From Candidatus Moraniibacteriota bacterium (GTDB lineage: Bacteria > Patescibacteriota > Minisyncoccia > Moranbacterales > GCA-2747515): DNA of 64,000 nucleotides. The stretch is taken from contig CP065011.1 of NCBI GenBank assembly GCA_016699795.1, positions 482,474-546,473 on the forward strand, read 5' to 3'. This document shows positions 27,924-54,447 of this stretch, piece by piece. The notes below the pieces were generated by a model. It was not told the origin of the DNA, did not search any database, and worked only from the letters and a program-made list of their open reading frames with translations. The position numbers and the translations under genes are program-made. Position 1 is the first letter of the stretch; each line of letters begins with the position of its first letter.

Positions 27924-29075
27924 ATGGTTAGTTGCACAAATAGTAAAGATAGTCATCTTTTATCTAATGGTCGGCATAGATCCCGACTCTTCCATTTATT
28001 ACAAAGAGCTCGAAAAACTCGTAAGTATTCAGCTATAGCGGTTGTTTTAATGAGTGTTTTTCTTGTTTCTACTAATAATATTTCTACTCGTTATAAAACG
28101 AAAGATCAATTAGAAAAAGAAGTTTTTACGCATTCTTTTAAGACAAATACTATTGAAGAGAAAACTTCAAGAAATACCATTGCTGCTTTGCCTTATATTC
28201 AAACAAACAACACAACAACTTCACAACTAGAACAAAAACAGGAAATCTCCATTCTTCCACCTGATGCAAAAACTCAATCTGCTTTTTCTTATTTTTCAGC
28301 ACAATCCTTTGTAGCTACTGTTAATGCTATGGAAAAAGATCCTGAAATAGACGGTGGTATGACTCTTTATGTAGTACAAGAAGGGGATACGGCGAGTTCG
28401 ATAGCCTCAAAACATAATATAAACATCAACACACTCTACTGGGCAAACAATATTGAAAATATTGATGAGATTATGCCAGGAGACACCCTCTTCATCCTTC
28501 CTGTTTCTGGACTAAAATATAGTATTAAAAATGAAGACACTCTCAAAAGTCTTGCGGATAAATACGAAGTTAGTGAAGATCAAATCATAGCCTTTAATGA
28601 ACTTCCAGCAAATGGACAATTAAAAGAAGGTGATGAAATTATTATTCCGGGAGCAAAAAAGGATATTCCTGAACTGGAACAAGAAGAAGTATCACCAAAC
28701 ACAAATCTTTTTGCACCGAGGCAGTATACTGGATCTAACGGAAAAAATGTTGAGAACAGACATGGTAAACCCAACACTTTTCCTTATGGTTATTGTACGT
28801 GGTATGTAGCTCAACAAAAACACGTTCCTTGGCGAGGAAATGCTGGAACGTGGCTTTATAACGCCAAAGCCTCAGGATATGCAACAGGAAGTAAACCAAA
28901 AACAGGATCTATCGTTGTTACTACTGATAATACTTATTATGGCCATGTTGCTGTAGTAACGAAAGTATCGGAAGATTCTATTACTGTAAAAGAAATGAAT
29001 TATAAAGGATGGGGAGTTGTTAATACTCGAGATATTAGTATCAAAGATCGACGTATTAAAGGGTATATCTATTAG
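27924..29075 (+). CDS. membrane-anchored peptidoglycan hydrolase: 2x LysM + CHAP domain
   Basis: 383 aa. N-terminal TM. Two LysM repeats (YVVQEGDTASSIASKHNINTLYWANNI... and YSIKNEDTLKSLADKYEVSEDQIIAFNEL...). C-terminal CHAP-like domain with candidate catalytic Cys (YGYCTWYVAQ) and His (YYGHVAVVT). Confidence 0.75.
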   Translation: MVSCTNSKDSHLLSNGRHRSRLFHLLQRARKTRKYSAIAVVLMSVFLVSTNNISTRYKTKDQLEKEVFTHSFKTNTIEEKTSRNTIAALPYIQTNNTTTSQLEQKQEISILPPDAKTQSAFSYFSAQSFVATVNAMEKDPEIDGGMTLYVVQEGDTASSIASKHNININTLYWANNIENIDEIMPGDTLFILPVSGLKYSIKNEDTLKSLADKYEVSEDQIIAFNELPANGQLKEGDEIIIPGAKKDIPELEQEEVSPNTNLFAPRQYTGSNGKNVENRHGKPNTFPYGYCTWYVAQQKHVPWRGNAGTWLYNAKASGYATGSKPKTGSIVVTTDNTYYGHVAVVTKVSEDSITVKEMNYKGWGVVNTRDISIKDRRIKGYIY

Positions 29076-32683: not shown

Positions 32684-33163
32684 ATGATGCGATTTCCTGT
32701 TCCACAATTTATCGGAGTTGAAGATAAGATTGCAGGACCCCTCACATGGAAGCAACTTTATTGGATGATTGCTATGGGAGTATTTCTTCTCCTTCTATGG
32801 AAAGCTTTTTCCCTTATTGTTTTCATCCCTCTTGGTGGACTTGTTGTGAGTATTTTTACAGCATTTGCTTTCTATAAACCATGGGGTCAACCCCTTTCTA
32901 AAATGGTATGGCATGCTATGATATTTCTATTTCGACCCAAAACATATACCTGGCAACAAACACCCACTGCTGCAAAGATCATCGGGGGGGACATTGCCAT
33001 TCCGATAGCTCCAAAAAAAGAAGATCCTAAAAAAACATTACAACGAATACAAGATTATTCAGAAGTTCTTGATAATCCTACAAAGAAAACTTTTTCAGAT
33101 TCAATGGTGACTCCGAAATCAAAACGTGATATACTTTCAATATTCTCAAAAAAAGAAAAATAA
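32684..33163 (+). CDS. VirB3/PrgI-like small two-TM protein
   Basis: 159 aa with two adjacent hydrophobic helices (WMIAMGVFLLLLWKAFSLIVFIPLGGLVVSIFTAFAF). Sits directly upstream of virB4, the conserved virB3-virB4 order. Confidence 0.35.
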   Translation: MMRFPVPQFIGVEDKIAGPLTWKQLYWMIAMGVFLLLLWKAFSLIVFIPLGGLVVSIFTAFAFYKPWGQPLSKMVWHAMIFLFRPKTYTWQQTPTAAKIIGGDIAIPIAPKKEDPKKTLQRIQDYSEVLDNPTKKTFSDSMVTPKSKRDILSIFSKKEK

Positions 33164-33876: not shown

Positions 33877-35682
33877 ATGGACAATACTACAACAGAAAAA
33901 AAAGATTATCAGAAAGAAGACGAGCTCTATCAACAAGGAATGTCTTCTGTTCGAGGTTTTATAGCTCCTGCTGCTATGAAAATTTCTTCATCTTTCTTGG
34001 AGATGGGGAGTATCTTTTCTCGCACACTCTTTGTTATGACTTATCCGAAATATCTTAATAACGGTTGGTTTTCTCCCATAATTAATATTGATTTTTCCAT
34101 GGATATTGCCATGTTTATGCATCCCATGGATTCTTCTATTGTTCTCAAAGATCTTCAAAAACAATCGGCTCGAATTTATTCTCAAATTCATCTAGAAGCG
34201 GAAGGTGGTAAAGTTCGTAATCCTATTCTAGAAGCAGCTTTAGAGAATGTTGAGCGTTTACGAGATGATCTTCAAACTGGTACTGAAAGATTTTTTCGAT
34301 TTGGTATGTATCTTACGCTTTACGCATCATCCTCACAAGAATTAAATGATATAACGAATCAAATAGAATCTATTTTAGAAGCTCAGATGGTCTATTCCAA
34401 ACCCGCAGTTTTACGAATGGATGAGGGATATTCTTCTACCATACCATTAGCTAATGATGAGCTTGATTTAGCAAATAATCTTAACACCTCTCCTGTATCA
34501 ACAACCTTTCCTTTTATCTCTTCAGAACTTTCTTCTAATGAAGGTATTCTTTATGGAATAAATCGTCATAATAATAGCCTCGTTCTCTTCGATCGTTTTC
34601 ACATGGAGAACGCGAATATGGTTATTTTTGCAAAATCAGGTGCTGGAAAAAGTTATACTGTCAAACTTGAGATTCTTCGATCTCTTATGTTCGGAACTAC
34701 TGTTCATATTATTGACCCAGAAAATGAATATCAACATCTTTGTGGGGCTGTTGGAGGAACCTATGTGCCCATTTCACTTAACTCCTCCTATCACATTAAT
34801 CCTCTTGATCTTCCTAAGGTTGAGCCCGGAAAAGATGATCCTGAAGGAATTTTCCGAAGTCATGTAGCCTCTATAATCGGACTTCTTCATCTTATGCTTG
34901 GTTCCATAACTCCGGAAGAAGATTCTTTACTCGACCGTTCGATACGAGAAGCTTATGCCATAAGAGATATCACTCCTCATTCTAATTTTTCTATACTCAC
35001 AAGAGAACAAATGCCCACTATGAGTGATGTTCAGAATGTTCTTTCTAATGTACAGGGTGCTCAATCCCTCGCTGCACGTCTAGAAAAATATACTGAGGGA
35101 ATCTTTTCTGGATTTCTTAATCAACATACTAATGTTGAAACGTATGGAATACTCACAACGTATAATATTCGAGATCTGGAAGAAGAACTTCGCCCCATCG
35201 CTATGTATGTTGTTTTACAGCATCTCTGGAATGAAATGCGTCATGAGCTCAAACGAAGACTTCTTGTTATCGATGAAGCTTGGGTTATGATGCAAAATGA
35301 TGATGCAGCTTCTTTTGTTTTTGGTATTGCTAAAAGATGTCGAAAATACTACACAGGATTGACTACTATAACACAAGATATTGCTGATTTTATGAGCTCC
35401 CGTTATGGAAAACCTATTGTCACAAACTCATCTATTCAATTTCTTCTTCGTCAATCACCTGCATCTATTGATGTTATTCAAGATACTTTTTATCTTACAG
35501 ATCAAGAAAAATTTCTCCTCCTTGAAAGTAATGTAGGGGAAGGAATTTTCTTTGCTGGCCTCAAACATGTTGCTATACGTGTCGTCGCTTCTTACTCAGA
35601 AGATCAAATTATCACCTCAAATCCTCAACAAATTCTAGAAATTGAACAGGCTAAATCTGATTTTGAAAAAAGTAATCTCTAA
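33877..35682 (+). CDS. VirB4/TrbE/CagE-family conjugation/T4SS ATPase, catalytic part
   Basis: 601 aa. Walker A IFAKSGAGKSYTV. Walker B RRLLVIDEAWVMMQ. ...YPKYLNNGWFSPIIN... block typical of VirB4. Confidence 0.85.
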   Translation: MDNTTTEKKDYQKEDELYQQGMSSVRGFIAPAAMKISSSFLEMGSIFSRTLFVMTYPKYLNNGWFSPIINIDFSMDIAMFMHPMDSSIVLKDLQKQSARIYSQIHLEAEGGKVRNPILEAALENVERLRDDLQTGTERFFRFGMYLTLYASSSQELNDITNQIESILEAQMVYSKPAVLRMDEGYSSTIPLANDELDLANNLNTSPVSTTFPFISSELSSNEGILYGINRHNNSLVLFDRFHMENANMVIFAKSGAGKSYTVKLEILRSLMFGTTVHIIDPENEYQHLCGAVGGTYVPISLNSSYHINPLDLPKVEPGKDDPEGIFRSHVASIIGLLHLMLGSITPEEDSLLDRSIREAYAIRDITPHSNFSILTREQMPTMSDVQNVLSNVQGAQSLAARLEKYTEGIFSGFLNQHTNVETYGILTTYNIRDLEEELRPIAMYVVLQHLWNEMRHELKRRLLVIDEAWVMMQNDDAASFVFGIAKRCRKYYTGLTTITQDIADFMSSRYGKPIVTNSSIQFLLRQSPASIDVIQDTFYLTDQEKFLLLESNVGEGIFFAGLKHVAIRVVASYSEDQIITSNPQQILEIEQAKSDFEKSNL

Positions 35683-37037: not shown

Positions 37038-40000
37038 ATGCGCACAAGAAAAATTTCACGAATATTTGCATTTTTTCTTTTGATCAGCCTTAATATTACT
37101 TATATTTCTCCCGTTTTTGCCCAATTTAGTGGTCTTATTGAGGAAGCTGCGAGTATTATTGAGAGACGTTATCATCTCAATCTTGGATCCATACAAAACC
37201 AGGGTGAGTATTTTAATGTTTCCGATCAGAAAAAACTTGCTCCCGAACTTATTATGAATTTCACCCCAACAGATCCGAAGCCTGGGCAAGAACTTACAGC
37301 GAAATCTTTTCCTATGTATTTCGAAAATAATAAAGAAGAATTATATTATACATGGTATCTACAAAAAGAAGGTTGTGATGATCTAGATTCTAAAAATAAT
37401 TTAGAAAAATGTGATGCCGATGGAGATGGTACGCTTACCATTGAAGATTGGAAGGTGGAAGCTTCCCGTATAATTGCTAATAGCGTTATTGAAAGAGATG
37501 AAATTAAATATGACAATGATGATGATAATGATGGATTTGCTTATGTCCATACTGGTAAAAAAGTAGCTGTCTATGGTGGGGCTGCTCGAAGGCAAATACT
37601 TGAACGATGTTATATTCTGGATCGAGAAACTGGAGAACAACATGAATTAATTAAAGGAAAGGCTCCAGATGGAACTCCCGGAAATAATCAAAATCCATTC
37701 GATTGTGATCTGACAACACATAACGTTCGTTGTCTCGATCGTGCTGCTACACCCTCTGGATGTAGTTTACCTACTTGTTTTTCACATCCTTCACCCTATT
37801 TTACAGCGTTAGCTCCTGATTGTCTCTCTGATAATAAAATTTCTTGTGTAAGAGGAAAACCCTATTGTATAGCAAAAATCTATACACTTGATGATGACCC
37901 CGCGACTTATTTAGAAAAAGAACAATGTCATGATGACTACCCTGACTTTTGTGGCTCTCTTTATATAGATGCTAAAGAGTTAACTTCTTGTGATAATGGA
38001 GGTAATAATGGAAGTACTTATGCGACAGCTGGCTGTAAACACCTTTTTCCCAATGCTAAAGGAAAAGAATTTATAACAAACAACAAACAGGGGACTTCAG
38101 TCAATGAAGTTACAGGGGATGGGGAATACGAATTACAAGAAGAAAAATTTTGGGTTACCGATCCTCATAACGATGATACCGCCAACACAGGAAATGGTGA
38201 TGAATCCAATATTGTTGGTATGGGCATAGACACTTTTACATGGAATTATCAATTAGGCGATAAGGTTGGTTTGGTTATCGAAGGAACTTCCCAAATTCCA
38301 ACTAAATATGATAATCATTCCAAAATGATTATGTGGGCTTTTTCTAAAAATGATTGTCCCGTAACAGGAAAGGGTGTTTATTATCCCCAGGTAAAAGACT
38401 ATGCCGTTAAAATCCATACTACTACAATGGATCTTGATAGTTGTCTTGAAAAAAATCTTATCGATCCTCGAGAAGGGGGTCAAAAAAATAATATCGATGT
38501 AAGCTTGGTATATTCTCCTGAAAAACCAATGAATAATTCTCGTGTTGTTGGTGGTGAAGATACTGCTCCAGATAAAGATGATAGCCTTGGTTTTGGCGAA
38601 ACACTTACGATTAATTCTTCTATTTCAAATTCAAAAAAAGACGAGTCTCATATTTCTTATACCTGGAAAGTTTTTATTAGCAAAGATGGGACTTTCGATC
38701 CTAGAAAATATGTAAGGGAATCGGATCCTATTAAAACGGGAGATGAATCTACCGCAGGATGGGTTGAAATAACAAAAGAGCTTGTAAAATATAAACTCGT
38801 CGATCTCGTTGAGGGAAATAATATTTCAGATTTAGATATATCTCTCAATATAACTGAAAAGCTTTTAAAAGAAGCTGATCCTTCTCTAACTATTGAAAAG
38901 GTTTTTCCTGATTCTTTAGGAAATATTGGACATTTGCGAGTACGTCTTTATGTAAAAGAAGAATTTGCACCCGATGTATCTGCTGATGGAGTTTCTACGA
39001 TTATAATACCCGTTAATAATAGCGGGAAGAGACTTACCTCCTCATTAGCATTTCTTGATGATATAAAACCTAAAACTTTCATTAATGAAGATCCTAAATC
39101 TACAGCTAATAATAAAAAAGTTCTTATCTGTGAAGATAAACTTACTCTTGCTTCTGGCATTTGTTATGTAACCAAAAATGAAGTTATCGCTGCTGAATTA
39201 GGAAAGTTGGAAAATGAAGATGCTACTGAAAAACTTACTAATTTCTCATGGGAGCTTGACGGGAAACCCCTTCTTTGTGATAAGAATGTTTCTAGAAAAT
39301 ATTGTGAGGATGACAAACAAACTCGATACAATTTTTTTGCTATCACAGGAAAACCAGGAGAGCGTCATTCTTTAACACTAACAGCATTAGAAGAAGTAAC
39401 TGGTCAAGTAAAAACATTTACACAAACCTATGAAGTTGTCGATCCTTTTATAGAAATAATCCCCTTTGATGATAATGTTTGGCCTAAATATCTTGGAGCT
39501 TATCGAGACGCTCAAGGTAAATATCATGAAGATATAAGCACTGAAGTTTTTCAAGGTTATTTTGGGGACTCTGCCTATCTACAGGCTGTATTTTTTCCTG
39601 ATTTCTTGAAAAAAAGAGCTCGAAAACAATGGCTCTGCTCATCAAATCTTTGCGATACTACTCACATGGAGATTGGCGCAAATGAACTTCCTACCGTTTA
39701 TTTCCCTATGATAGATCCTCCGGGACATACTTATAATGTATCTATGGAAGCGATTTATCAACAGAACAGGGAAGTACGAGAGGCTATGCAAAGAATATGG
39801 GGAATGCGTATATTTGAAACTACTGATTATTGGATAAAGAAGGCTGTTCGTATTGAAGTTCTTGAAAATAATGAAGAGGAAGATATAGCTCTTTTAACTC
39901 CAAAAACATTTTTTGCCTCTGTTCTTTCAAACACCCCTAAACATATTTGGTTTGCAACGCAAGCATTTTTAAGCATTCTCGTTTCTATATTCATATTAGG

Positions 40001-40040
40001 AATTCTTTATTCTTTAGGAAGATCTAATCGTTCATCATAA
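37038..40040 (+). CDS. large Cys-rich cell-surface protein with signal peptide and C-terminal TM anchor
   Basis: 1000 aa. N-terminal signal (MRTRKISRIFAFFLLISLNITYISPVFAQ). Many Cys. Ca-binding-like CDADGDGTLTIEDW. C-terminal hydrophobic anchor FLSILVSIFILGILYSL followed by a basic tail. Confidence 0.6.
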   Translation: MRTRKISRIFAFFLLISLNITYISPVFAQFSGLIEEAASIIERRYHLNLGSIQNQGEYFNVSDQKKLAPELIMNFTPTDPKPGQELTAKSFPMYFENNKEELYYTWYLQKEGCDDLDSKNNLEKCDADGDGTLTIEDWKVEASRIIANSVIERDEIKYDNDDDNDGFAYVHTGKKVAVYGGAARRQILERCYILDRETGEQHELIKGKAPDGTPGNNQNPFDCDLTTHNVRCLDRAATPSGCSLPTCFSHPSPYFTALAPDCLSDNKISCVRGKPYCIAKIYTLDDDPATYLEKEQCHDDYPDFCGSLYIDAKELTSCDNGGNNGSTYATAGCKHLFPNAKGKEFITNNKQGTSVNEVTGDGEYELQEEKFWVTDPHNDDTANTGNGDESNIVGMGIDTFTWNYQLGDKVGLVIEGTSQIPTKYDNHSKMIMWAFSKNDCPVTGKGVYYPQVKDYAVKIHTTTMDLDSCLEKNLIDPREGGQKNNIDVSLVYSPEKPMNNSRVVGGEDTAPDKDDSLGFGETLTINSSISNSKKDESHISYTWKVFISKDGTFDPRKYVRESDPIKTGDESTAGWVEITKELVKYKLVDLVEGNNISDLDISLNITEKLLKEADPSLTIEKVFPDSLGNIGHLRVRLYVKEEFAPDVSADGVSTIIIPVNNSGKRLTSSLAFLDDIKPKTFINEDPKSTANNKKVLICEDKLTLASGICYVTKNEVIAAELGKLENEDATEKLTNFSWELDGKPLLCDKNVSRKYCEDDKQTRYNFFAITGKPGERHSLTLTALEEVTGQVKTFTQTYEVVDPFIEIIPFDDNVWPKYLGAYRDAQGKYHEDISTEVFQGYFGDSAYLQAVFFPDFLKKRARKQWLCSSNLCDTTHMEIGANELPTVYFPMIDPPGHTYNVSMEAIYQQNREVREAMQRIWGMRIFETTDYWIKKAVRIEVLENNEEEDIALLTPKTFFASVLSNTPKHIWFATQAFLSILVSIFILGILYSLGRSNRSS

Positions 40041-40059
40041 ACAAAAAAAACATTTTGCA

Positions 40060-41196
40060 ATGAAAAATATTTTTATTATAAGCTCTGTTCTCTTTAGTAT
40101 TACTCTACTTTCTTGGTTATTATTTGTTTTTTTTGTTAAAGATCCCAAAGAGATAGAAGAGAAGCCTTCTCCCATTAGTGAGATTCAAGAAAAAGAAGAA
40201 CCCAAAGAAACCAGCTCGCCTTTTCAAATTTTTAGTGATTTCCCTATTCTTTCTCCACTTCTTTCGGAAGACGGTTCTTCTATTTTTGGTTATCACAAAG
40301 AAACGTCCACACTTTATTCTCTTAATGTAGAAAGTGGAGAAAAAAAAGTCCTTCAAGACACACAACTCACAAATCCCCTCATTGCTCTCTGGGCAAAAGA
40401 TCCTCGTATTTCCATACTCAAAACTTCTCCCCAAAAAAATGCTGAGTATTTTCTCGTGGATAGTAATTCTCAAACAACAACACCTCTTCCTTCCAATATT
40501 ACCTATTTAAATTGGGATAATCTATCTGAAAAAATTATTTTCATTCAAAGAAAAAAGCCTGAGGAGATACTTTTTTCCACGGCAAAACCTGATGGATCAG
40601 AACCAAAAGAACTTCTTACTATCACAGAGAAAGGAAGAATTTCTCTTATTCCTGTACCACAATCCCCAGCTATAGCTTATTGGCCACAAAGCGCTAATAC
40701 AAAAATTTCACCACTTTTTCATATTAATCTTAGTTCCGGCACAAAAACGGAAATATTTTCAGGAAGATATGGGGGAGATTATCTCTATTCTCCTGATGGA
40801 GAAAAAATTCTTCTTAGTTGGTCTCCAGAAAAAAACAGTTCCAAACTCACACTCGCTCTCTTAAATAAATATGGCGGTCAATATAAAGATCTTGGCCTTC
40901 CTACATTAGTATCTAAATGTGCATGGGGAAAAAATACTGTACATATTTATTGCGCTGTTCCCACAGGAATACCCCAAACAGCTGTTATGCCCGATGATTA
41001 TCTTAATGGAAAAGTATCTACCGTAGATTCTCTTTGGAAAATAAACGTAGAAACTGGAAAAAAGGAACGTGTCGTAGAACTCTCTGATATAAAAGAAACT
41101 TTTGATGTTACTAATATTTTTATCGATGCAAGCGAGCAATTTCTTTATTTTACGAACAAATCCACAAATATCCTCTATAAAGTAAAACTCCCTTAA
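40060..41196 (+). CDS. membrane-anchored PD40/TolB-like beta-propeller protein
   Basis: 378 aa. N-terminal TM. Repeated ...SPDGEKILLSWSP..., ...KPDGSEP... blocks typical of PD40 propeller blades. Confidence 0.5.
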   Translation: MKNIFIISSVLFSITLLSWLLFVFFVKDPKEIEEKPSPISEIQEKEEPKETSSPFQIFSDFPILSPLLSEDGSSIFGYHKETSTLYSLNVESGEKKVLQDTQLTNPLIALWAKDPRISILKTSPQKNAEYFLVDSNSQTTTPLPSNITYLNWDNLSEKIIFIQRKKPEEILFSTAKPDGSEPKELLTITEKGRISLIPVPQSPAIAYWPQSANTKISPLFHINLSSGTKTEIFSGRYGGDYLYSPDGEKILLSWSPEKNSSKLTLALLNKYGGQYKDLGLPTLVSKCAWGKNTVHIYCAVPTGIPQTAVMPDDYLNGKVSTVDSLWKINVETGKKERVVELSDIKETFDVTNIFIDASEQFLYFTNKSTNILYKVKLP

Positions 41197-41211: not shown

Positions 41212-42489
41212 TTGAAAATAAGAAAAAATATAGTAACCTCTATGTTTAAAAATAAAATATTTAAAAAAATAAACATCCTTCTTTTGAATATCAAAGAAAG
41301 AATTATTTTTTTTGTTTTTATTCTATCTTTTTTTATTATTCAAAGCCCCTCTGTTTTTGCCATGACTGAAGCTGAATGCGAAGCAAAAAGTGGTGCTGGT
41401 CCGAATGAGAAAGCTTATTGCTCTTCTACTATGTGCTCTACTGGGGAAGGGAAAGAGACTTATTTAGGAGAATGTGATTCACTTATCTCGCCACATTGTT
41501 GTAAAAAAGGAGATTACACTACAACTACAAGTTGCGCTGCTTTGGGTGGTACTTGTAGTGGCCACGCTAGTTGCCCCAGCCTCACCTCTCGTGTTGGTCT
41601 CTGTGATAAATTAGCTGATGGTGGAACTGATACTTGTTGTAAACCAACAAAGATTGTTTATCCTGATGGATCAACACCAAAAGCCAATTCAACCTCTTCT
41701 TTCGACTATACCCCCCTCGAACCCATTCCAGGTGCTACAAATGATACATCTACTCTTGCAGGATTTCTTGAAGGTCTTTATTTTTTTGTTATGTGGAGTG
41801 CAGGAGTGATGGCTATGTTCATGATAGGGTTGGGAGGTTTCTGGTATCTTACTTCAGCAGGAAACACTTCTCGTGTAGGAGAAGCTAAAACTATTATTGT
41901 TAATGCTCTTTTGGGACTTTTAGTTCTTACGTTTACATGGCTTATTCTCTACATCATTAATCCAGATCTTACTAAGTTAGATTGGAGTAGCTTGGAGGAA
42001 ATTCTCATTGATCGAAAGGGGTCCTCCTTTAACAATCCTCCTCAAATTGGTCCAGGAAATCCTAATAATGGTAATGGATCTTGTAGCCCAGTTTCCAATG
42101 GACCTTGTTCGGTTGAAAATTTAAAACAAACCTGTCTTTCTTCAAATGTAAATGTATTTTCACAAATATGTAATAAAGAAAGTAGTGGAGACCCTCTAAA
42201 ACCAAGTGTCGTTGATCGTTGTAAAAAAAGAGGTAATAATGAGCCCTTTTCTATAGGTCTTTATCAAATCAATCTTACTGTTCATACTATAGGCGGTCTT
42301 AATTGTCCTTCTGCCTTCAATGGAAAAAATTATGATTGTATAGTAATTAATAAGGATCTTTATGAAAAATGCGTTAAGGCGGCACAAGATCCCAATCTTA
42401 ATATAAAAAAGGCTTGCGAAATTTCAGGTAATGGTAATAATATAGGTCCTTGGAAAAATACAGCTATTACTTGCGGTCTTTATAAATAA
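41212..42489 (+). CDS. chimeric protein: signal peptide + Cys-rich domain + T4SS-pilin-like two-TM hairpin + lytic transglycosylase (SLT/VirB1-like) domain
   Basis: 425 aa. Hairpin LAGFLEGLYFFVMWSAGVMAMFMIGLGGFWYLTSAGNTSRVGEAKTIIVNALLGLLVLTFTWLILYIINP resembles TrbC/VirB2-type pilins of Gram-positive/CPR T4SS. C-terminal ...ICNKESSGDPLKPSVVD...FSIGLYQINL... resembles the SLT catalytic E-S and GLMQI motifs. Confidence 0.6.
   Translation: MKIRKNIVTSMFKNKIFKKINILLLNIKERIIFFVFILSFFIIQSPSVFAMTEAECEAKSGAGPNEKAYCSSTMCSTGEGKETYLGECDSLISPHCCKKGDYTTTTSCAALGGTCSGHASCPSLTSRVGLCDKLADGGTDTCCKPTKIVYPDGSTPKANSTSSFDYTPLEPIPGATNDTSTLAGFLEGLYFFVMWSAGVMAMFMIGLGGFWYLTSAGNTSRVGEAKTIIVNALLGLLVLTFTWLILYIINPDLTKLDWSSLEEILIDRKGSSFNNPPQIGPGNPNNGNGSCSPVSNGPCSVENLKQTCLSSNVNVFSQICNKESSGDPLKPSVVDRCKKRGNNEPFSIGLYQINLTVHTIGGLNCPSAFNGKNYDCIVINKDLYEKCVKAAQDPNLNIKKACEISGNGNNIGPWKNTAITCGLYK
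41695..42003 (+). repeat. 309-nt cassette, nucleotide-identical to 43614..43922 (pilin-like hairpin-coding segment), copy 1
   Basis: Direct comparison of the two stretches shows identity over 309 nt, encoding SSFDYTPLEPIPGATNDT...DWSSLEEI. Flanking sequence on both sides is unrelated. Confidence 0.85.
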
Positions 42490-42499
42490 AAATAGCTTT

Positions 42500-43054
42500 A
42501 TGAAAATAAATTATCGATTTTTTATTCTTTTTTTTCTTTCTCTTATTTTTTTAGTTGGGACTTTTTTTATAACACTACAGTATATTAACTTTCCTTTACT
42601 CCCAAATAAAAAAGAAACTCTAGAAAAAAAAGTGGGTGAAGAAAATAAACCTAAAAAAGAAAGAATTATTGAAATTCTAGACCATTCCAAATACACTCAT
42701 GAAAAAATAGGCTCGGATATAATATCTCAATCAAGAAAAATAGATGATACTATTTATATCTTTCTCGAAAAAAATAAAATTAGTGAATATGAAAATCCTG
42801 ATTATGTCATTTATTATTTTTTAAAAAAAAGTCCTAATGGGGAGATAAAACCTGAGGGCTCCGTAAGAATCATTCTTCAAAAAAAGCCATTTGAAGAGCT
42901 TAGAGCCCTTGCGGAAAAAGATTTTCTTGATAAACTTGCTCTTACAAAAGAGGATGCTTGTCAACTTGATATTTCAGAAACTATTTTATTTGAGATAGAT
43001 CCAGAGCATGGTGGGGTTGATTTTGGATTAAGTTTTTGTGAAAACTCTTTATAA
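42500..43054 (+). CDS. N-terminally anchored hypothetical protein (possible VirB8-like accessory)
   Basis: 184 aa. Single N-terminal TM then soluble domain. Assignment by architecture only. Confidence 0.35.
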   Translation: MKINYRFFILFFLSLIFLVGTFFITLQYINFPLLPNKKETLEKKVGEENKPKKERIIEILDHSKYTHEKIGSDIISQSRKIDDTIYIFLEKNKISEYENPDYVIYYFLKKSPNGEIKPEGSVRIILQKKPFEELRALAEKDFLDKLALTKEDACQLDISETILFEIDPEHGGVDFGLSFCENSL

Positions 43055-43205
43055 AGATTTCACTATTATTATAAATCCCTTCATAAAAACTTCTTCTAAC
43101 ATACTTTATTTTTCTTTCCAAAAAACGCATTGTCTTTTATAATTTAAAATAAGATATTTCAAATTATAAAATTAAATTGTCTTATTGTTTTTAAAATAAA
43201 ATAAT

Positions 43206-44420
43206 ATGAAAAATAAATTCTTTCCTTTTTTCTTTTCTTTTCTATTATTTTATTCATTCCTTCCGATTCAAGCTCAAGCAGGATTTACTTCAGATGCGGA
43301 ATGTTTTGATGCTTTTGGAGTACCAACAGCAAAGAATTCTGCTTGTGCGCAAGGGTATTATGAAGGTGGTGATATTTGTTACAAATTAGCTGATGGTACA
43401 ATTAACTGTAACTTAACAAAGTGTTGTATAGACGAAGAAAAAGGAAATAAAAATGATTTAACAAAAAAATGCCAAACTGAAATGGGGGGGACTTATATCA
43501 CAGGGAATATCTGCTCTACTGGTGATGATGAGAAAGGAACATTAAAAGATCCAAAAAATCCAACATATACCTACAAATGTTGTAAAAAAAATTATACAAC
43601 TCCTTCATCAGATTCTTCTTTCGACTATACCCCCCTCGAACCCATTCCAGGTGCTACAAATGATACATCTACTCTTGCAGGATTTCTTGAAGGTCTTTAT
43701 TTTTTTGTTATGTGGAGTGCAGGAGTGATGGCTATGTTCATGATAGGGTTGGGAGGTTTCTGGTATCTTACTTCAGCAGGAAACACTTCTCGTGTAGGAG
43801 AAGCTAAAACTATTATTGTTAATGCTCTTTTGGGACTTTTAGTTCTTACGTTTACATGGCTTATTCTCTACATCATTAATCCAGATCTTACTAAGTTAGA
43901 TTGGAGTAGCTTGGAGGAAATTGCAGTAGATGTGGGCTCTGAAACAGGAACAGGAAATAAATCAACAATTGATACACCAACAACCGTGGGTTGTGGGAAA
44001 ATAGTTGAAGCTGCGCATGCTATGGTAACTAGTGGCTGTAAATATAGCCAAGCGAAACGAAATGCTTGTACTGGAAATCCAGGGTATACAGATTGTTCTG
44101 ATTTTACATATCATGCCTATAAAAAAGCTGGTTGTAGCACTGGTTTTGGGAATACCACAGCTACTATGGTAGGTAAAACACCTACATTTAATGGAGATCA
44201 ATCAAGTCTTAAAGCTGGTGATGCTCTTGTTTATAATAATGGGGGTAGTGGTCATGTTGTTATATGTGAACAAGATGGCTGTAATACAATAACTCATGCG
44301 TCGGGAGAAAAAGCTGGTTTAAAAAAGGGAGCTTCCTCTGGTTACATATTTAAAAAACCGAACCTTCATGTTATTCGAGCAGAAACATTTTGTGCCAATG
44401 CTAAAGATGCTTCTTGTTAA
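43206..44420 (+). CDS. chimeric protein: signal peptide + Cys-rich domain + T4SS-pilin-like two-TM hairpin + NlpC/P60-or-CHAP-type cysteine peptidase domain
   Basis: 404 aa. Central 103 aa identical to the paralog at 41212..42489. C-terminal ...GYTDCSDFTYHAYKKAGC...GDALVYNNGGSGHVVIC... has Cys and His spaced as in NlpC/P60/CHAP papain-like peptidoglycan peptidases. Confidence 0.6.
   Translation: MKNKFFPFFFSFLLFYSFLPIQAQAGFTSDAECFDAFGVPTAKNSACAQGYYEGGDICYKLADGTINCNLTKCCIDEEKGNKNDLTKKCQTEMGGTYITGNICSTGDDEKGTLKDPKNPTYTYKCCKKNYTTPSSDSSFDYTPLEPIPGATNDTSTLAGFLEGLYFFVMWSAGVMAMFMIGLGGFWYLTSAGNTSRVGEAKTIIVNALLGLLVLTFTWLILYIINPDLTKLDWSSLEEIAVDVGSETGTGNKSTIDTPTTVGCGKIVEAAHAMVTSGCKYSQAKRNACTGNPGYTDCSDFTYHAYKKAGCSTGFGNTTATMVGKTPTFNGDQSSLKAGDALVYNNGGSGHVVICEQDGCNTITHASGEKAGLKKGASSGYIFKKPNLHVIRAETFCANAKDASC
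43614..43922 (+). repeat. 309-nt cassette, copy 2 (identical to 41695..42003)
   Basis: See copy 1. Offset between copies is 1919 nt. Confidence 0.85.
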
Positions 44421-44429
44421 CTTAAAAAT

Positions 44430-45146
44430 ATGACAAAAAAAATTATTTTTCTTATCGTTATCTTTCTATTCCTTCTAATTTTGGGAATATTCTTTTTTTT
44501 CCAAAAAAACAAAATAACACAAGAAGATTCTCCCACTAAAAATATACAAAAAATAGAAATTCCTACTGAGAAGGAAAAAGAAACAGCACTTATTTCAAAT
44601 GATTTACAAAATTTTCTTTCTACGCCGACATCAGAAGAAATAACGTGGTTCTCTCCAAAAAATACAGAAAAGAATGAGATTCTTCCTATAAGAGAATTTT
44701 TTCAAAAAAATTCTCTTCGTCTTTCTGTTGAAATGCAGACAAAGATCGATTGGAAAGACTATGATCTTTTTTTATGCCCATCTCCAGATGAAAATGGAGT
44801 GGGAGTCCGTCTTACTCAAATAGCAAATCCCCAAACAGGAAAACCTACTTATGAAGAAATACTTCAAGCTCTCGATACTTGGTCAAGCGTAATACCAATA
44901 GATCTTTGGTTATTATTTTTCAAAAATCCTGAAGAAACAAAAAATATACAATCCGTTTTTGTTGAAAATAAAGAGTATTCTTATGATTCTGCCTATGAAT
45001 GGAGATATAAAAAAGCAATTGTAACATTTGTTAGTGGAGAGAAAAAAGAATTTTATTATGGAACAGTTGCTCATAATATCCTTATTACGCAATCTCTTTC
45101 TTGTGTTCACAAAGTCTCCAAACAACTTTACGATCTTGTCCCATAA
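44430..45146 (+). CDS. N-terminally anchored hypothetical protein
   Basis: 238 aa. N-terminal TM (IIFLIVIFLFLLILGIFFFF) then soluble domain. 3' end overlaps the convergent gene by ~60 nt. Confidence 0.4.
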   Translation: MTKKIIFLIVIFLFLLILGIFFFFQKNKITQEDSPTKNIQKIEIPTEKEKETALISNDLQNFLSTPTSEEITWFSPKNTEKNEILPIREFFQKNSLRLSVEMQTKIDWKDYDLFLCPSPDENGVGVRLTQIANPQTGKPTYEEILQALDTWSSVIPIDLWLLFFKNPEETKNIQSVFVENKEYSYDSAYEWRYKKAIVTFVSGEKKEFYYGTVAHNILITQSLSCVHKVSKQLYDLVP

Positions 45147-46353
45147 AACAAACGAACCAAAATAAAAAACTTATATCATTCCTCCAATAGGGAGTGTCTA
45201 TTAAACCCCAGATTACTATCATACTAAGAAAAGAAAAAACAAAGAGATACAGTTCTTTGTTTTTTTTATCTCTTTCAAAAGAAAAAGTTAAAGAGTGTAG
45301 CGTACTTCCTAACACACAAAGAAAGCCTATAAAACCAACAAAGCCTGATTGCATATAAAAAGAAAGAAAAATATTGTGAGGATGTGGCACTGCCCATTCA
45401 AGATAAAAAGGATATTTATTTTGGTATTCCAGATACTTTTCTTGAAAATTTCCTGGTCCTATGCCCCAGAAAAAATTATCTTTGGTTATATCCCAAGCTG
45501 ATTGCCATATCATCAAACGAGAAACAAAGGATGATCTTGTTTCCATATCAAAAAATACAACTTCTTTTTCAAAGGTAAGAAAAAAGAAAACAACTACACA
45601 AAAAAGGAGGAGAAAGAAAAAATGCATACATATTAATAGTCCTTTTCTATTCTTTACCAAAGATAAAACACCTAAAGCAGTTAAGAGGCTCAAAAATGCA
45701 CCGTAAGACATTGTAAGTATCAAAGTTGAGATGATTATAGTAAAAAGAATATGATGGCCGTATTTCTCAAAAATAGAGCTTCTCATTGATATTTTCTTTT
45801 GTATTTTCTGCCAAAGATAGAGAAGGGCAGGTGCTATATATAAAGCAAGTTGATTAGGAGAATCATACCATCCTCGAAGACGATTATCGTACGTCATGCC
45901 AAAATCAAAAAAACTCAAAAAAAGAAGGGAAAAAGAAACCGCACCCGCACTTAAAACATAACTATACAGAAAGTTTTTCCATTCTTTTTCTTTTTTGTAA
46001 AAAGTAAAAAGAAGAAAAGTAAAAAGAAAGGGCAAAAAAAACCAACTCTTTATTATTCCCCATTCTCTGGAAGATATTCCTTCAGAAAAAAAGGCGGAAA
46101 AAAAAGTTCCAAAGAAAAGTAAAAGAACTCCAAAGAAAAAAAGTTTATTTTTTATTATTAAACACTGAAAACGGTATTGTAATTCTTTGGAGGAAAAAAT
46201 TCGTACAAGAAAAAGAAAAATACCTACAAGCAAAAGCACGTCTAGCATATTTGTTTTTATGCCAAAAAATTCAAACCGAATCACATATGTTGGTACAAGA
46301 AAAATAACTATATACGGATAATATTTTTCTCCTTTGGAAAAAAAATTTTTCAT
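45085..46353 (-). CDS. O-antigen ligase/Wzy-like polytopic membrane protein
   Basis: 422 aa with ~10-12 TM. ...HPHNIFLSFYMQSGFVGFIGFL... resembles the Wzy_C (O-antigen ligase) H-N...E/Q-G motif. Confidence 0.55.
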   Translation of the reverse strand: MKNFFSKGEKYYPYIVIFLVPTYVIRFEFFGIKTNMLDVLLLVGIFLFLVRIFSSKELQYRFQCLIIKNKLFFFGVLLLFFGTFFSAFFSEGISSREWGIIKSWFFLPFLFTFLLFTFYKKEKEWKNFLYSYVLSAGAVSFSLLFLSFFDFGMTYDNRLRGWYDSPNQLALYIAPALLYLWQKIQKKISMRSSIFEKYGHHILFTIIISTLILTMSYGAFLSLLTALGVLSLVKNRKGLLICMHFFFLLLFCVVVFFFLTFEKEVVFFDMETRSSFVSRLMIWQSAWDITKDNFFWGIGPGNFQEKYLEYQNKYPFYLEWAVPHPHNIFLSFYMQSGFVGFIGFLCVLGSTLHSLTFSFERDKKNKELYLFVFSFLSMIVIWGLIDTPYWRNDISFLFWFVCFMGQDRKVVWRLCEHKKEIA

Positions 46354-47636
46354 AGTATTTCTTCTTTCTGTTCTTTCTCAAACCAAAAAACACTTGAAAG
46401 AACAAGAAAAAGAACACTTATAATGTGAATAGAAAATAACGGGGTATCAAAAAACGTGTGCAGAGAAAAAACTCCGAGAGAAAACATCATGGATAAAGCG
46501 TAAAGATTTTTTTTCCTCTGTTGTAATCCAATCAAAAAAGATGCTCCTATCCACATAACCCAAAGAAAAAGTGAAAAAAGTCCCATTTCTACGGCGATAT
46601 CTAAATATATATTATGAGCATAAATAGGATCTCTATATTCAGCGCTAGGAAGAATTTCCAATGCATATCCACCCATACCCACACCCCAGGGCTTTTCCAT
46701 AATTATATACCATGATTGTTTCCACATATCCAATCGTCCTGCATTAGAATTATCTAGAGTAGAAAAAGAGGAAAGAGCTCTCTCAAAAAAAGGATTTTCA
46801 TAAAAAATAAAGGAAAAACAAAGAAATAAACTTATAAAAAGTCCTACAATAAGGCGAAATTTTCTCATTTGAACAAGAAAAAAAGATATTCCTAAAAAGG
46901 CGAAAAAGAAAAGTGCTATATAAGCACCTCGAGAAAATGTCAAGAGGAGAGCTAATAAAATAATACTTGCAATCATTGCGTATCCCCATGATTTTTTTGA
47001 ATAAGCATATATTAAGGTCCAAACCAAACAAAATTCCCAATAAAACGCGGCAATATGAGGATCTGGAAAAAATCCTATAGCACGAAAAACTGTTTCCCCT
47101 CCCACATTAACTAACCAACTCGAATATTCAATAACCGATTCCGAAAATGATTCTCCTAAAAAAAGAGGTGCTACAAGAGTCCTCCACCATAAAAGTGTTT
47201 TTTCTATACCAAAAAAGAATGGGAGTGTGAACTGAAAAATAGCAACGAGAGAGGATAAACATCCTGAAAATGCAAGTGCCTTTGAAAGAGCTTCGGGTGT
47301 CCATTTTTTTTGAAAAAACATCCAGGAAGCCATAAAAAAAAGGAGGAAAAAATTTATAAGAAAAAAAACTTTTCTTAGAGCCCATTCTTGGTTTTGGGCC
47401 CATAGAAAAGATAATGCAGCAAAAAAAAGGAAGGAAATACCTAGCCAAAAAGCCTTTGACTTTGGAAGTTCTAATTTTCCCGATATAAGAACTGTATGAA
47501 TCCAAAAGAAAAAAGCTAAAAAAATAATCAAACGAGTAATGCCTACATCAAAAGTTTCTGAAATATTAAGCGCGAATTGAAAAGGAAGAAAAAGAAGAAA
47601 AAGAAGAAGGAATTTATCGTTAAAAAATGATTTCAT
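46350..47636 (-). CDS. O-antigen ligase/Wzy-like polytopic membrane protein (paralog)
   Basis: 428 aa polytopic. ...AHNIYLDIAVEMGLFSLFLWVMW... matches the Wzy_C motif. ...SRGAYIALF... typical loop. Confidence 0.55.
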   Translation of the reverse strand: MKSFFNDKFLLLFLLFLPFQFALNISETFDVGITRLIIFLAFFFWIHTVLISGKLELPKSKAFWLGISFLFFAALSFLWAQNQEWALRKVFFLINFFLLFFMASWMFFQKKWTPEALSKALAFSGCLSSLVAIFQFTLPFFFGIEKTLLWWRTLVAPLFLGESFSESVIEYSSWLVNVGGETVFRAIGFFPDPHIAAFYWEFCLVWTLIYAYSKKSWGYAMIASIILLALLLTFSRGAYIALFFFAFLGISFFLVQMRKFRLIVGLFISLFLCFSFIFYENPFFERALSSFSTLDNSNAGRLDMWKQSWYIIMEKPWGVGMGGYALEILPSAEYRDPIYAHNIYLDIAVEMGLFSLFLWVMWIGASFLIGLQQRKKNLYALSMMFSLGVFSLHTFFDTPLFSIHIISVLFLVLSSVFWFEKEQKEEIL

Positions 47637-49292: not shown

Positions 49293-49324
49293 AGGCTTTT
49301 TTTATTTTTTTAGTATAACACATC

Positions 49325-50752: not shown

Positions 50753-50812
50753 AGTTTTCTATTGAAAAATACTTATTCCTCTAGTATCCACGAAAAGAAG
50801 AAAAAAGTCGAG

Positions 50813-50845
50813 AAAAAAACCGCAAAAATTGCGGCTTTTTTTTCT
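50813..50845 (-). terminator. rho-independent terminator after the jag-yidC-rnpA-rpmH operon
   Basis: AAAAAAACCGCAAAAATTGCGGCTTTTTTTT: GC stem CCGCAA/TTGCGG flanked by A and T runs. Confidence 0.5.
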
Positions 50846-50863
50846 ATCTTTTTTTGGAAAAGT

Positions 50864-51352: not shown

Positions 51353-51370
51353 ATCTTTCTGCTTTATCCC

Positions 51371-52458: not shown

Positions 52459-52477
52459 AAAAATGAAAAAAGAAACT

Positions 52478-52609
52478 CTAAACGAGCTCTTTTCTTCCTT
52501 TTCTTCTTCTTGCTTGAAGTACACGCTTCCCTGCTGAGGTTAGGCTTCTTTTTAAGAAACCATGTGTATTTCTTCGCTTAATTTTCTTCGGCTGATATGT
52601 TCGCTTCAT
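52478..52609 (-). CDS. rpmH: 50S ribosomal protein L34 (missed by the >=60-aa ORF track)
   Basis: Manual reverse-complement translation gives [43 protein letters not shown] (44 aa), a textbook L34, in the canonical position upstream of rnpA. Confidence 0.85.
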
Positions 52610-53049
52610 ACTTTTTTGGATGATCTCTTAACTCGGAAAGAATATCTGTTTTTTTACTTATTGTCAATGCATTTTTCTTTTTATAAAAATATTTTTATTC
52701 TTCAGTACTCTATAAGAACGATTTTTTATTTTCAAATACGAGGTACAAGTTGTTAAAATAAAAAACTATTTATTTTTATTTTAAGGAATGTATATATTGA
52801 AAATTTGCTTTTTTATACGTATTTCGTATACATTTCGTATACTTTTCCACAGGTTTTCCACATGCATATTCTTTATTTCTTTTTATGCTTTAAATAAAGA
52901 ATATTCTTCTTTATTTTTAAATAATTTATTGGCTTTTAAAAAGAAAATAATGACATTATCCACAAGTTATCCCATATATACACCAAAAAACAATTTTCTC
53001 TGTGGTATACTGTTTTTTGAAAGATATCATTTATTCCTTTTTTGCTATT
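52610..53049. promoter_or_regulatory. rpmH-dnaA divergent intergenic region with consensus DnaA box (likely part of oriC / dnaA promoter region)
   Basis: AT-rich 440 nt. Perfect DnaA box TTATCCACA at 52956-52964. Weaker inverted box (tgtggtata) near 53003. Confidence 0.5.
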
Positions 53050-54447
53050 ATGAAATTTGATGAGATATGGAATGCCGTCCTAGGATCTATTGAGCTTTCG
53101 ATCTCAAAAGCTCAATTTGGAACATGGTTTAAAGGAACAAGAATACTTTCTTTAGAAAAAGATTCTGTTTATATTCGTGTTCCTAATGGATTTGCAAAAG
53201 AGTGGCTTGAAAATAAATTCAATATTATCATATTACGATCTCTTCATGACCTTGGTTATCCTGTAAAAGAAATTCATTGTAAGGTTGATGATTCTTTTAT
53301 TCCTAAAGAAAAAGTTTTTTCTGAAAAACAAAGCATTCCAACAAAAAGCATTCCTACATTTTCTTCGGAAATAAAAAATTTTCAACCAACTTCAAAAAAT
53401 TATCAGACTAATTCTTCCTCAAACCTTAATCCTCGTTATACCTTTGAGAACTTCATCATAGGAAATCATAATGAATTAGCATATTCAGCTTGTGTTGCTG
53501 TTTATCAAGATTTGGGAAATGCTTATAATCCACTTTTTATTTACGGAGGAGTAGGTTTAGGAAAAACGCATCTTCTTCAATCTATAGGGAATGCCATACT
53601 TAAAAATACTCCTGAAAAAAAAGTTCTTTACATAACAAGTGAGAAATTTACACAAGAACTTATTAATTCTATAAAGAACCATACGGTAGACACTTTTAAA
53701 AGTTTTTATCAAAACATAGATCTTCTTATTATTGATGATATTCAATTCCTTTCAGGAAGAGAAAAAACCCAACAAGAGTTTTTTCACATTTTTAATACTC
53801 TCTATCAACAAAACAAACAAATTGTATTAAGTAGTGATCGTCCACCAAAAGCAATCGCTACCTTAGAAGATCGCTTACGTTCTCGTTTTGAGGGTGGTAT
53901 GATTGCAGATATTAATAGACCTGATTTAGAAACAAGAATAGCCATTCTTCAAGAAAAAGCTCAACAAAAAAATATCTCTCTTTCTGATGAAATTTTTTCC
54001 TATATTGCCGAAAATATAACAAATAATGTAAGGGAGCTTGAAGGAGCACTTACTCGAATAACAGCACTTCAACAGTTTCATCACATAACACATCCTACTA
54101 TAAAAGATGTTGAGGATATTTTGAAAGAAATAGTTTCAAGTGGTAAAAAAAAGGCTATAAGCCAAGAAGATATTATACATTCTATCTCTTCATTTTATGG
54201 TATATCTTCAGAAGATCTCAAACAAAAGGGAAGAAAAAAGGAAATTGCAGAAGCTCGTCAAATGGCTATGTATCTTATGCGAAAAGAACTTCATCTTCCT
54301 TATACTGGAATTGGTAGATGTTTTGGAGGAAGAGATCATACAACAGCACTTCATGCTTTTGAAAAAATTGAAAAATTATTAGATACTGATGAAAAAACAA
54401 GAAAAGATGTTTCTTTTTTGAAGGAAAAAATTTATTGCATAGAATAA
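53050..54447 (+). CDS. dnaA: chromosomal replication initiator DnaA
   Basis: N-terminal MKFDEIWNAVL... AAA+ Walker A GGVGLGKTHLLQ. Walker B LLIIDDIQF. C-terminal DNA-binding helix-turn-helix (...EIAEARQMAMYLMRKELHLPYTGIGRCFGGRDHTTALHA...). Start trimmed to second Met. Confidence 0.9.
   Translation: MKFDEIWNAVLGSIELSISKAQFGTWFKGTRILSLEKDSVYIRVPNGFAKEWLENKFNIIILRSLHDLGYPVKEIHCKVDDSFIPKEKVFSEKQSIPTKSIPTFSSEIKNFQPTSKNYQTNSSSNLNPRYTFENFIIGNHNELAYSACVAVYQDLGNAYNPLFIYGGVGLGKTHLLQSIGNAILKNTPEKKVLYITSEKFTQELINSIKNHTVDTFKSFYQNIDLLIIDDIQFLSGREKTQQEFFHIFNTLYQQNKQIVLSSDRPPKAIATLEDRLRSRFEGGMIADINRPDLETRIAILQEKAQQKNISLSDEIFSYIAENITNNVRELEGALTRITALQQFHHITHPTIKDVEDILKEIVSSGKKKAISQEDIIHSISSFYGISSEDLKQKGRKKEIAEARQMAMYLMRKELHLPYTGIGRCFGGRDHTTALHAFEKIEKLLDTDEKTRKDVSFLKEKIYCIE

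Follow-up and report, generated by a model that had tools for sequence, protein, structure and literature searches.

A pilin-like module, probably homogenised by gene conversion, as a recombination joint in paired predicted hydrolase genes of a Moraniibacteriota type IV secretion locus

The repeat and the genes that carry it

In a 64,000-nucleotide (nt) stretch of a Candidatus Moraniibacteriota genome (contig CP065011.1, positions 482,474 to 546,473; hereafter the window, in whose own coordinates positions are given), two neighbouring forward-strand open reading frames (ORFs) at a type IV secretion system (T4SS) locus encode predicted exported proteins that share a single internal segment and are otherwise unrelated. 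ORF A (41212..42489) comprises a signal peptide, a Cys-rich N-terminal domain (N-domain) of two ~40-amino-acid (aa) units, the shared module, a low-complexity linker and a putative SLT_3 lysozyme-like or lytic-transglycosylase domain. ORF B (43206..44420) opens with a signal peptide and a Cys-rich N-domain distinct from that of ORF A, followed by the identical module, a disordered low-complexity linker and an NlpC/P60 domain. The module is encoded by a direct repeat of 309 nt, or 103 codons, on the forward strand: copy 1 (41695..42003) encodes ORF A's VirB2-like pilin module in full, and copy 2 (43614..43922) that of ORF B. Loci and contigs used for comparison are referred to below by L numbers and their proteins by P numbers.

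When extended in both directions, the match between 41695-42003 and 43614-43922 is exact over 309 nt, with a mismatch already at the first base outside either edge, and the copies start 1919 nt apart. Beyond these edges the flanks, compared in register in blocks of 60 nt, are 20-52% identical, which is background at a GC content of 33%. BLASTP of one ORF product against the other aligns the module alone (105 of 109 residues identical), with no significant match outside it (best E = 0.6), and the repeat lies in frame in both genes, occupying codons 162-264 in ORF A and 137-239 in ORF B. The original prediction that 309 identical nucleotides sit between unrelated flanks is thereby borne out, although its description of the genes as diverged paralogues is not supported: the flanks are non-homologous domains (SLT_3 versus NlpC/P60) rather than diverged copies of one another. 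The 1.6 kb separating the copies consists of the hydrolase domain of ORF A, a gene for a 184-aa protein (42500-43054) and the N-domain of ORF B. A repeat scan of the 64-kb window yielded no third copy of the segment. The sole other long repeat, unrelated to this one, is a 47-nt tandem array at 22618-22831 (4.6 copies, 99% matches, period not a multiple of 3), which is intergenic between a reverse-strand ORF (21854-22507) and a tRNA-Ala gene (22934) and has no Rfam match.

Both copies are real. The two products are present in a public protein collection as IPN70_02585 and IPN70_02595, from a Candidatus Moraniibacteriota metagenome-assembled genome (MAG), and the length of the source contig (1,186,598 bp) was counted in favour of both copies. 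An independent assembly of the same strain was available as Logan contigs L093 and L094, from short-read run SRR11674012. Logan is a unitig-based assembler with k = 31 and without repeat resolution. L094 corresponds to window positions 41974-43643 and L093 to 43893-55146, each at 100% identity, so that three of the four junction contexts (repeat to C-terminal domain of ORF A, N-domain of ORF B to repeat, and repeat to C-terminal domain of ORF B) are matched perfectly, and the contig ends fall exactly 30 nt (k-1) inside the ends of the repeat. Breaks at this distance mark a branch point of the assembly graph, where the reads leave the end of the repeat into two different sequences and enter its start from two different ones. 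This establishes both copies as genuine and refutes the alternative, raised at the outset, of an assembly collapse or single-copy artefact. The segment is a genuine two-copy direct repeat.

The pilin module

The module runs in the order SSFDYTPLEPIPG, first transmembrane (TM) helix, loop SAGNTSRVGEAK, second TM helix and INPDL...LEEI, and lies internally in proteins of 404-425 aa. Against the Pfam family PF18895 (T4SS_pilin) it scores 19.9 bits over residues 181-249, below the cut-off of 26.6, and relatives whose modules are 47-72% identical to that of the window exceed the cut-off (P0008, 32.4 bits; P0163, 32.6; P0151, 29.4; the stand-alone 138-aa pilin P0017, 28.4); several module homologues also carry precomputed PF18895 matches. 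A word-indexed homologue search with the 103-aa module by itself found nothing and an exhaustive HMMER search was needed, which recovered 15,440 relatives. Among these, the stand-alone 138-aa pilins consist of a signal peptide and a module and nothing more. The homogenised tract begins ~5 residues before the conserved YTPLEPIPG motif, where mature stand-alone pilins begin, and terminates at the point where they terminate; its borders therefore delimit a full mature pilin unit.

The AlphaFold model of ORF B contains a helical hairpin (residues 157-189 and 194-224; predicted local distance difference test scores of 73-83) made of two hydrophobic helices joined by the short basic loop SAGNTSRVGEAK, for which Foldseek returned a weak, non-significant match to the conjugative pilus subunit 8dfu (E = 3.6). 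The repeat encodes the entire VirB2-like two-helix membrane hairpin, the 'T4SS_pilin' of the candidate phyla radiation (CPR), in two adjacent genes of a T4SS locus. By the positive-inside rule, the short basic loop would be cytoplasmic and both ends of the protein, with their variable N- and C-terminal domains, would lie outside the cell.

Other arrangements of pilin-type modules were seen in the wider family. P0007, P0011, P0014, P0089 and P0142 each carry 3-7 tandem modules in one polypeptide, often with a terminal SLT-type domain, and L038 (6003-10022) holds two more distant pilin-type modules on separate ORFs with 86% nucleotide identity.

Variable domains and partner genes

The C-terminal domain (C-domain, or head) of ORF A (42004-42489, forward strand) matches SLT_3 (PF18896) at E = 3.5e-5, with 24.6 bits against a cut-off of 27; it has no sequence match in the PDB, and its ...CNKESSG... 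(ES) and GLYQIN motifs resemble what we take to be motifs I and II of family-1 lytic transglycosylases. The database gene call for this ORF (P0002, 375 aa) starts at Met51 (41362) and so leaves the signal peptide out; translation likely begins upstream, at the ATG at 41242, which gives a typical signal peptide ending in ...SPSVFA|M, and similar start-site miscalls may affect other members of the family.

The C-domain of ORF B (43923-44420, forward strand) scores 21.1 bits against NlpC/P60 (PF00877, cut-off 23). Aligned to CwlO it shows the DCS and GHV motifs, its predicted catalytic residues Cys297 and His350 are kept in 17 homologues, and the AlphaFold model has a confident C-terminal NlpC/P60 fold among disordered linkers, with Foldseek matches to Cg1735, a Thermus thermophilus DL-endopeptidase, RipC and Tse1, a type VI secretion system (T6SS) effector. 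Motifs, catalytic residues and the papain-like fold together point to an NlpC/P60 endopeptidase, whose enzymatic activity is a prediction. The window proteins were counted as members of the pilin, SLT_3 and NlpC/P60 families because close relatives pass the cut-offs and because motifs and fold agree.

The N-domains of the two ORFs (41362-41694 and 43280-43613) are both Cys-rich and have no significant similarity to each other. Each is built from two units of ~40 aa that end in a CC pair, and relatives have 1-4 such units. Residues 46-73 of P0008 give a weak Defensin_beta_2 match (E = 0.0098), and binding is one possible function of these domains.

Behind each fusion gene lies a gene for a protein anchored in the membrane at its N-terminus: after ORF A, the 184-aa protein (42500-43054, forward strand), in which two Cys residues are invariant, and after ORF B, a 238-aa protein (44430..45146, forward strand). 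Of 11 SLT_3-type fusions, 8 have a homologue of the 184-aa protein directly downstream, as against 0 of 59 fusions with other classified C-domain types (Fisher p = 2e-8); one more homologue, in L082, stands behind a fusion whose C-domain is unclassified. A homologue search with the 238-aa protein returned the protein itself alone; at the loci compared here, members of its family follow all three NlpC/P60-type fusions (window, L004 and L014; p = 7e-5), with one weak match elsewhere (L052), and the gene is absent from L001, L002 and L089, where the orthologue of ORF B has a different C-domain. Heads, N-domains and partners are 35-66% identical where VirB4 is 93% identical, and this rapid evolution fits the logic of effector-immunity or effector-inhibitor pairs in polymorphic toxin systems. 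That a head type co-varies with a specific downstream membrane protein suggests effector-partner cassettes, with the 184-aa protein as a candidate immunity or cognate factor of the SLT_3-type fusions.

Comparison across genomes

Three loci from other metagenomes (L001, L002 and L089) have the same gene pair at the same position, and modules were compared across these syntenic loci and a set of 83 modules from 80 GTDB loci, mostly of Moraniibacteriota. A scan of GTDB genomes with a single protein found nothing; an alignment-based scan succeeded, with a best match of 54% identity, which places the species of the window outside the representatives in that database. All three syntenic loci carry a repeat with the same sharp edges, of 319 nt and no mismatches between copies in L001, ~318 nt and 7 mismatches in L002, and 295 nt and 3 mismatches in L089. 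Further module pairs differ at 3 positions (L014) and at 1 (L048), and the pair L027/L035, on different contigs of one genome, is 94% identical. The proteins of L048 are without N-domains, and there the homogenised tract reaches upstream into the signal-peptide region.

Among the window and its syntenic loci, module proteins are 98-100% identical within genomes and 57-80% identical between them, whereas the N- and C-domains cluster by orthologue at 40-62% identity and are unrelated between paralogues. At the nucleotide level, all seven within-genome module pairs are 87-100% identical, compared with a median of 56% between genomes, where identity peaks at 89% (n = 3396), and in all seven the nearest neighbour of each module is its own paralogue. 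Synonymous sites follow suit: the synonymous substitution rate (dS) of the module is 0, 0.014 and 0.075 within genomes and 1.26-1.70, which is saturated, between them, where third-position identity is 45-53%; the ratio of non-synonymous to synonymous rates (dN/dS) between the window and L001 is ~0.11. The modules of P0029 and P0031 are identical to those of other proteins, in contexts that are uninformative (short or single-copy contigs).

Paralogues within a genome are therefore closer to one another than orthologues are between genomes, synonymous sites included, and the pattern is independently repeated in the syntenic loci of the window, L001, L002 and L089 as well as in L014, L048 and L027/L035. 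This is concerted evolution, and it is restricted to the module domain. Identity within genomes combined with saturated dS between them indicates repeated homogenisation after the genomes split, rather than slow evolution or constraint on the nucleotide sequence, and strongly argues for gene conversion as the process responsible. Gene conversion had been proposed from the window alone, together with a check on whether orthologous loci in related genomes hold modules matched within a genome and diverged between genomes; the check had exactly this outcome, and the proposal has found support. The strong nucleotide-level constraint that was suggested alongside them is contradicted by the synonymous divergence between genomes.

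Recombination at the module

Comparison of ORF B with its orthologues points to the module as a joint at which flanking domains are replaced. ORF B and gene B of L001 have N-domains with 50% identity and C-domains that are unrelated: at the C-terminal position the window has NlpC/P60, and L001, L002 and L089 have a Cys/His-rich domain. The latter gave a non-significant match to the Zn D-Ala-D-Ala carboxypeptidase of Streptomyces (1lbu; E = 1.2) and may tentatively be regarded as a putative Zn peptidase of LAS/M15 type. At least 6 clusters of C-domains were found on the same module family. The cassette exchange foreseen in the original prediction thus finds support, since ORF B and its orthologues carry different C-terminal domains, and the sequence comparison indicates that the replaced cassette comprised the hydrolase domain and the gene downstream of it. 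An exchange on the other side is seen in P0155 and P0156, in which module and C-domain are identical and the N-domains differ.

The repeat also marks the ends of deletions. P0160 consists exactly of the N-domain of P0004, a module and the C-domain of P0003, and the contigs that encode it (L086, L087 and L088), obtained from three accessions with three different assembly pipelines, do not differ from one another; each equals L001 minus a clean 1839 bp between the repeats, and all three have in common a private cluster of six single-nucleotide polymorphisms (SNPs) relative to L001. These six SNPs fall within 43 nt at L086 5243-5285 (L001 10960-11002), in the Gly-rich linker of the C-domain, and resemble a small imported or converted patch. 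In a second lineage, P0005 consists of the N-domain of P0164, a module and the C-domain of P0163, and L091 and L092 each correspond to L089 with the equivalent deletion between repeats. L091 has the three diagnostic bases of copy 1 and L092 those of copy 2, a difference that implies different crossover points or different parental states. The repeat interrupts the Logan assembly of the two-gene genotype, yet in L088 the same assembler reads through it, and on the strength of this contrast the deletion contigs, with the N-domain of gene A joined through the module to the C-domain of gene B, were judged to be probably real alleles rather than mis-joins. Deletion and fusion through the repeat are thus documented in two sister lineages and, by extension, would be expected in the genome of the window. 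The idea that the direct repeat could delete the intervening gene was accordingly right as to the mechanism, with clean deletion alleles in both lineages, and too narrow as to the interval, which holds more than the 184-aa gene.

Genomic context

The fusion genes lie in a block of T4SS genes that begins with a LysM-CHAP peptidoglycan hydrolase (27924..29075) and includes a PrgI/VirB3-like component (32684..33163) and a VirB4-type ATPase (33877..35682), the protein of which is 93% identical to that of L001 and 79% to those of L002 and L089; a secreted protein of 1000 aa and a TolB-like beta-propeller protein follow (37038..41196), both conserved in the syntenic block, and all of these genes are on the forward strand. 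Pilin-module genes are associated with the T4SS core (VirB4, VirB3/PrgI and VirB6-like) in the window and in the syntenic loci. The TolB-like gene (40060-41196) is upstream of the pilin fusions in the window and directly downstream of them in 38 other Moranbacteria loci in GTDB; found with many head types, it is a general, conserved but mobile component of the locus.

Downstream of the fusion genes are two Wzy_C genes, glycosyltransferases, yidC, rnpA, dnaA and dnaN. The tandem Wzy_C (O-antigen-ligase-like) genes (45085-47636, reverse strand) converge on the pilin-fusion genes in all syntenic loci examined, the 3' end of the first overlapping the 238-aa gene by ~60 nt in the window, and in the syntenic loci the pair is followed by glycosyltransferases, a flippase-like gene, yidC, rnpA and dnaA. 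With dnaA at 53002..54447 on the forward strand, the locus sits on the chromosome, ~8.6 kb away from the replication-origin genes, and is an origin-proximal, monoderm-type T4SS of Patescibacteria (cf. PMC12102498).

Interpretation and alternatives

The best explanation overall, and one that we consider very probably correct, is that the module is homogenised by gene conversion and at the same time acts as a recombination joint in paired T4SS pilin-hydrolase fusions. Recurrent non-reciprocal homologous recombination between the two copies would homogenise the module, with conversion tracts that end where homology ends, namely at the domain borders, and the razor-sharp edges of the repeat are what such a process would leave. 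Crossing-over between the copies would remove the intervening 1.8 kb and produce a fusion gene with the N-domain of A and the C-domain of B, whilst the segment 3' of the module (hydrolase domain and cognate downstream gene) could be exchanged as a cassette. An identical hairpin may be tolerated, or even favoured, if both proteins present it to one T4SS that inserts, docks or polymerises it, a step that we regard with moderate confidence; the extracellular N- and C-terminal domains would evolve fast as the hairpin stays matched. The heads, each with its type-specific membrane-anchored partner, would cut peptidoglycan, and the partner would inhibit the enzyme or protect against it. With moderate confidence, the substrate is probably peptidoglycan of the host or of the cell itself; that it is specifically the host's is speculation, and the partners may be inhibitors or immunity factors.

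Several points weigh against this account. The conversion event was not directly observed and is deduced from the pattern of identity. The 309/309 identity comes from one consensus assembly, in which short-read polishing could mask a few real differences, the sister genomes having 0-7 mismatches. The contigs with deletion alleles are short (2-9 kb) and come from sister lineages; no such allele was found in the lineage of the window, for which scans of Joint Genome Institute (JGI) metagenomes came back empty for the native junction too, the lineage being absent from them, and so are evidence neither way. The pilin, SLT_3 and NlpC/P60 Pfam scores of the window proteins all lie slightly under the curated cut-offs, and the hairpin may polymerise, be cleaved out or merely anchor the protein. 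The co-occurrence statistics for the partners ignore shared ancestry among loci, and neither the 184-aa nor the 238-aa protein has Pfam or PDB relatives or homology to known immunity proteins or inhibitors.

Four other explanations deserve consideration. Inside one genome, a single event and repeated conversion look the same, and the perfect identity in the window could equally reflect one recent domain insertion or duplication there, a one-off shuffle rather than ongoing homogenisation. However, the A/B gene pair is older than the split of the window, L001, L002 and L089, as its orthologous N-domains, C-domains and synteny attest, and each of these genomes has its own near-identical pair, which implies independent homogenisation at least 4 times in the clade; the near-identical pairs in L014, L048 and L027/L035 extend the pattern, and the graded divergence of 0 to 13% resembles a balance between conversion and mutation. 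We therefore regard a one-off event as very improbable.

The deletions and swaps might instead be programmed, with the repeats serving as a regulated switch (through reversible deletion, duplication or cassette swap) that chooses the hydrolase head in the manner of pilE/pilS or a shufflon. In two sister lineages, natural populations hold two-gene alleles alongside fused single-gene ones, and in P0155 and P0156 the N-domains are swapped on an identical module and C-domain, observations that would be in keeping with such a switch. Against it, a deletion between direct repeats cannot be undone unless a donor copy exists, neither silent cassettes nor a site-specific recombinase nor inverted repeats were seen, and the deletion contigs of the L001 lineage are mutually identical with private SNPs, as expected of a clonal variant and not of a high-frequency switch; programmed variation is in our view very improbable. 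A site-specific recombination system at the locus was considered as a candidate and rejected, there being no recombinase and no inverted repeats.

That the 309 nt are held constant as a DNA or RNA element inside both genes (a regulatory RNA, a recombination site or a binding array) would account for the identity at every synonymous site within the window genome, but the between-genome dS, third-position identity and dN/dS given above run counter to it, as do the want of any Rfam family match in the segment and of a recombinase gene or inverted repeat at the locus, and we give this idea hardly any credence. An RNA element in the repeat was likewise rejected as a candidate for lack of an Rfam match. 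An artefact, in which assembly or polishing duplicated one module or collapsed two diverged ones, is scarcely credible: the window is a consensus sequence in which polishing could have erased a few differences, but the k = 31 assembly breaks k-1 nt inside the repeat on otherwise perfect contigs, the source contig spans 1.19 Mb and at least 6 further independent assemblies have the same architecture, some with 1-7 mismatches between copies.

Implications

This locus bears on the cargo of the patescibacterial T4SS and on the role of its 'pilins'. The pilin-like hairpin is the sole part that two unrelated, fast-evolving, predicted exported cell-wall hydrolases share exactly, and it serves evolution as a joint for head swaps, gene fusion and gene deletion. 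The 'highly variable pilin arrays' that have been reported consequently call for re-reading domain by domain, with the SLT, NlpC/P60 and putative Zn-peptidase heads as candidate T4SS substrates or accessories and their partners as candidate immunity proteins. Assemblers will break or mis-join loci of this kind, and copy numbers and architectures of pilin fusions in MAGs of the CPR are thus probably under-counted. Short-read contigs often begin or end at a pilin module, as seen in L083 (1.7 kb), L085 (which starts 130 nt before the gene), L088 and L094.

More tentatively, we suggest a further step that we consider possible, though rather less than probable: in CPR bacteria like the Moranbacteria the VirB2-like hairpin may be not, or not only, a pilus subunit and may act as the T4SS 'handle' of polymorphic effectors that attack the cell wall. 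Cys-rich binding domains and hydrolase heads, with their cognate membrane-anchored immunity proteins, would be shuffled at this handle, and conversion would keep all handles matched to the single T4SS used to breach the host.

Relation to known systems

A literature search of incomplete coverage, made with the Pfam identifiers and on concerted evolution or gene conversion in connection with CPR pilins, did not find the pattern described. The process itself is known, as concerted evolution and as the modular recombination of polymorphic effectors; the setting, an internal VirB2-like hairpin of hydrolases linked to a CPR T4SS, appears to be undescribed.

Peptidoglycan hydrolases associated with T4SSs include VirB1, and PrgK/TcpG of Gram-positive conjugation systems. 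The present locus resembles these in encoding membrane-anchored SLT-type and NlpC/P60- or CHAP-type hydrolase domains among T4SS genes. It departs from them in distributing two activities over two genes, in anchoring each by a pilin-like hairpin instead of a single TM helix, in placing a Cys-rich domain before each, and in holding a separate LysM-CHAP hydrolase as well.

According to work cited in PMC12102498, the T4SS of Patescibacteria is nearly universal, lies beside the replication origin and is reportedly essential for epibiotic growth. That survey itself, the sole one of these pilins to be found, lists 441 VirB2 arrays in CPR/Patescibacteria, whose members are 'highly variable' (mean whole-protein identity 25%, maximum 54%), and infers pilus biogenesis without a need for VirB1; it does not describe fusion to hydrolase domains, and 'hydrolase' occurs only in its reference list (PMC12102498). 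The genes studied here belong with those arrays in having the same PF18895 hairpin family beside a monoderm-type T4SS (VirB4, PrgI, VirB6-like) near dnaA, and differ from them in that the module is 100% identical and only the fused domains vary. Whole-protein identity is ~25% here as well, a value that hides both the identity of the module and the hydrolase fusions at the resolution of the survey. Arrays of VirB2 paralogues in Bartonella and Anaplasma, as cited in the same paper, likewise place several VirB2-type genes at one T4SS locus; there the arrays are read as diversifying, with antigenic variation, whereas in the present genes homogenisation affects the pilin part and diversity resides in the fused domains.

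Polymorphic toxins (CdiA-CT, Rhs, MafB and TpsA cassettes; PMC3848433) offer a parallel in their conserved delivery module, variable C-terminal enzymatic head and head-specific downstream gene, in the exchange of heads by homologous recombination in the conserved part, and in the fast evolution of heads and partners. The bactericidal peptidoglycan-hydrolase effectors of T4SS and T6SS (PMC6759196; Tse1) similarly come with an immunity protein encoded next to them. Unlike in polymorphic toxins, the handle here is an internal VirB2-like hairpin flanked on either side by variable domains, the loci compared showed no orphan cassettes, and the partners' immunity function and the delivery to target cells are both putative. 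Finally, as in tuf genes and rRNA operons (kinetics in PMC5485169), intragenomic copies are near-identical at synonymous sites, diverge normally between genomes and are matched along a tract bounded by homology; what sets the present case apart is that homogenisation is limited to one internal domain of otherwise non-homologous proteins and is coupled to domain shuffling and deletion alleles.

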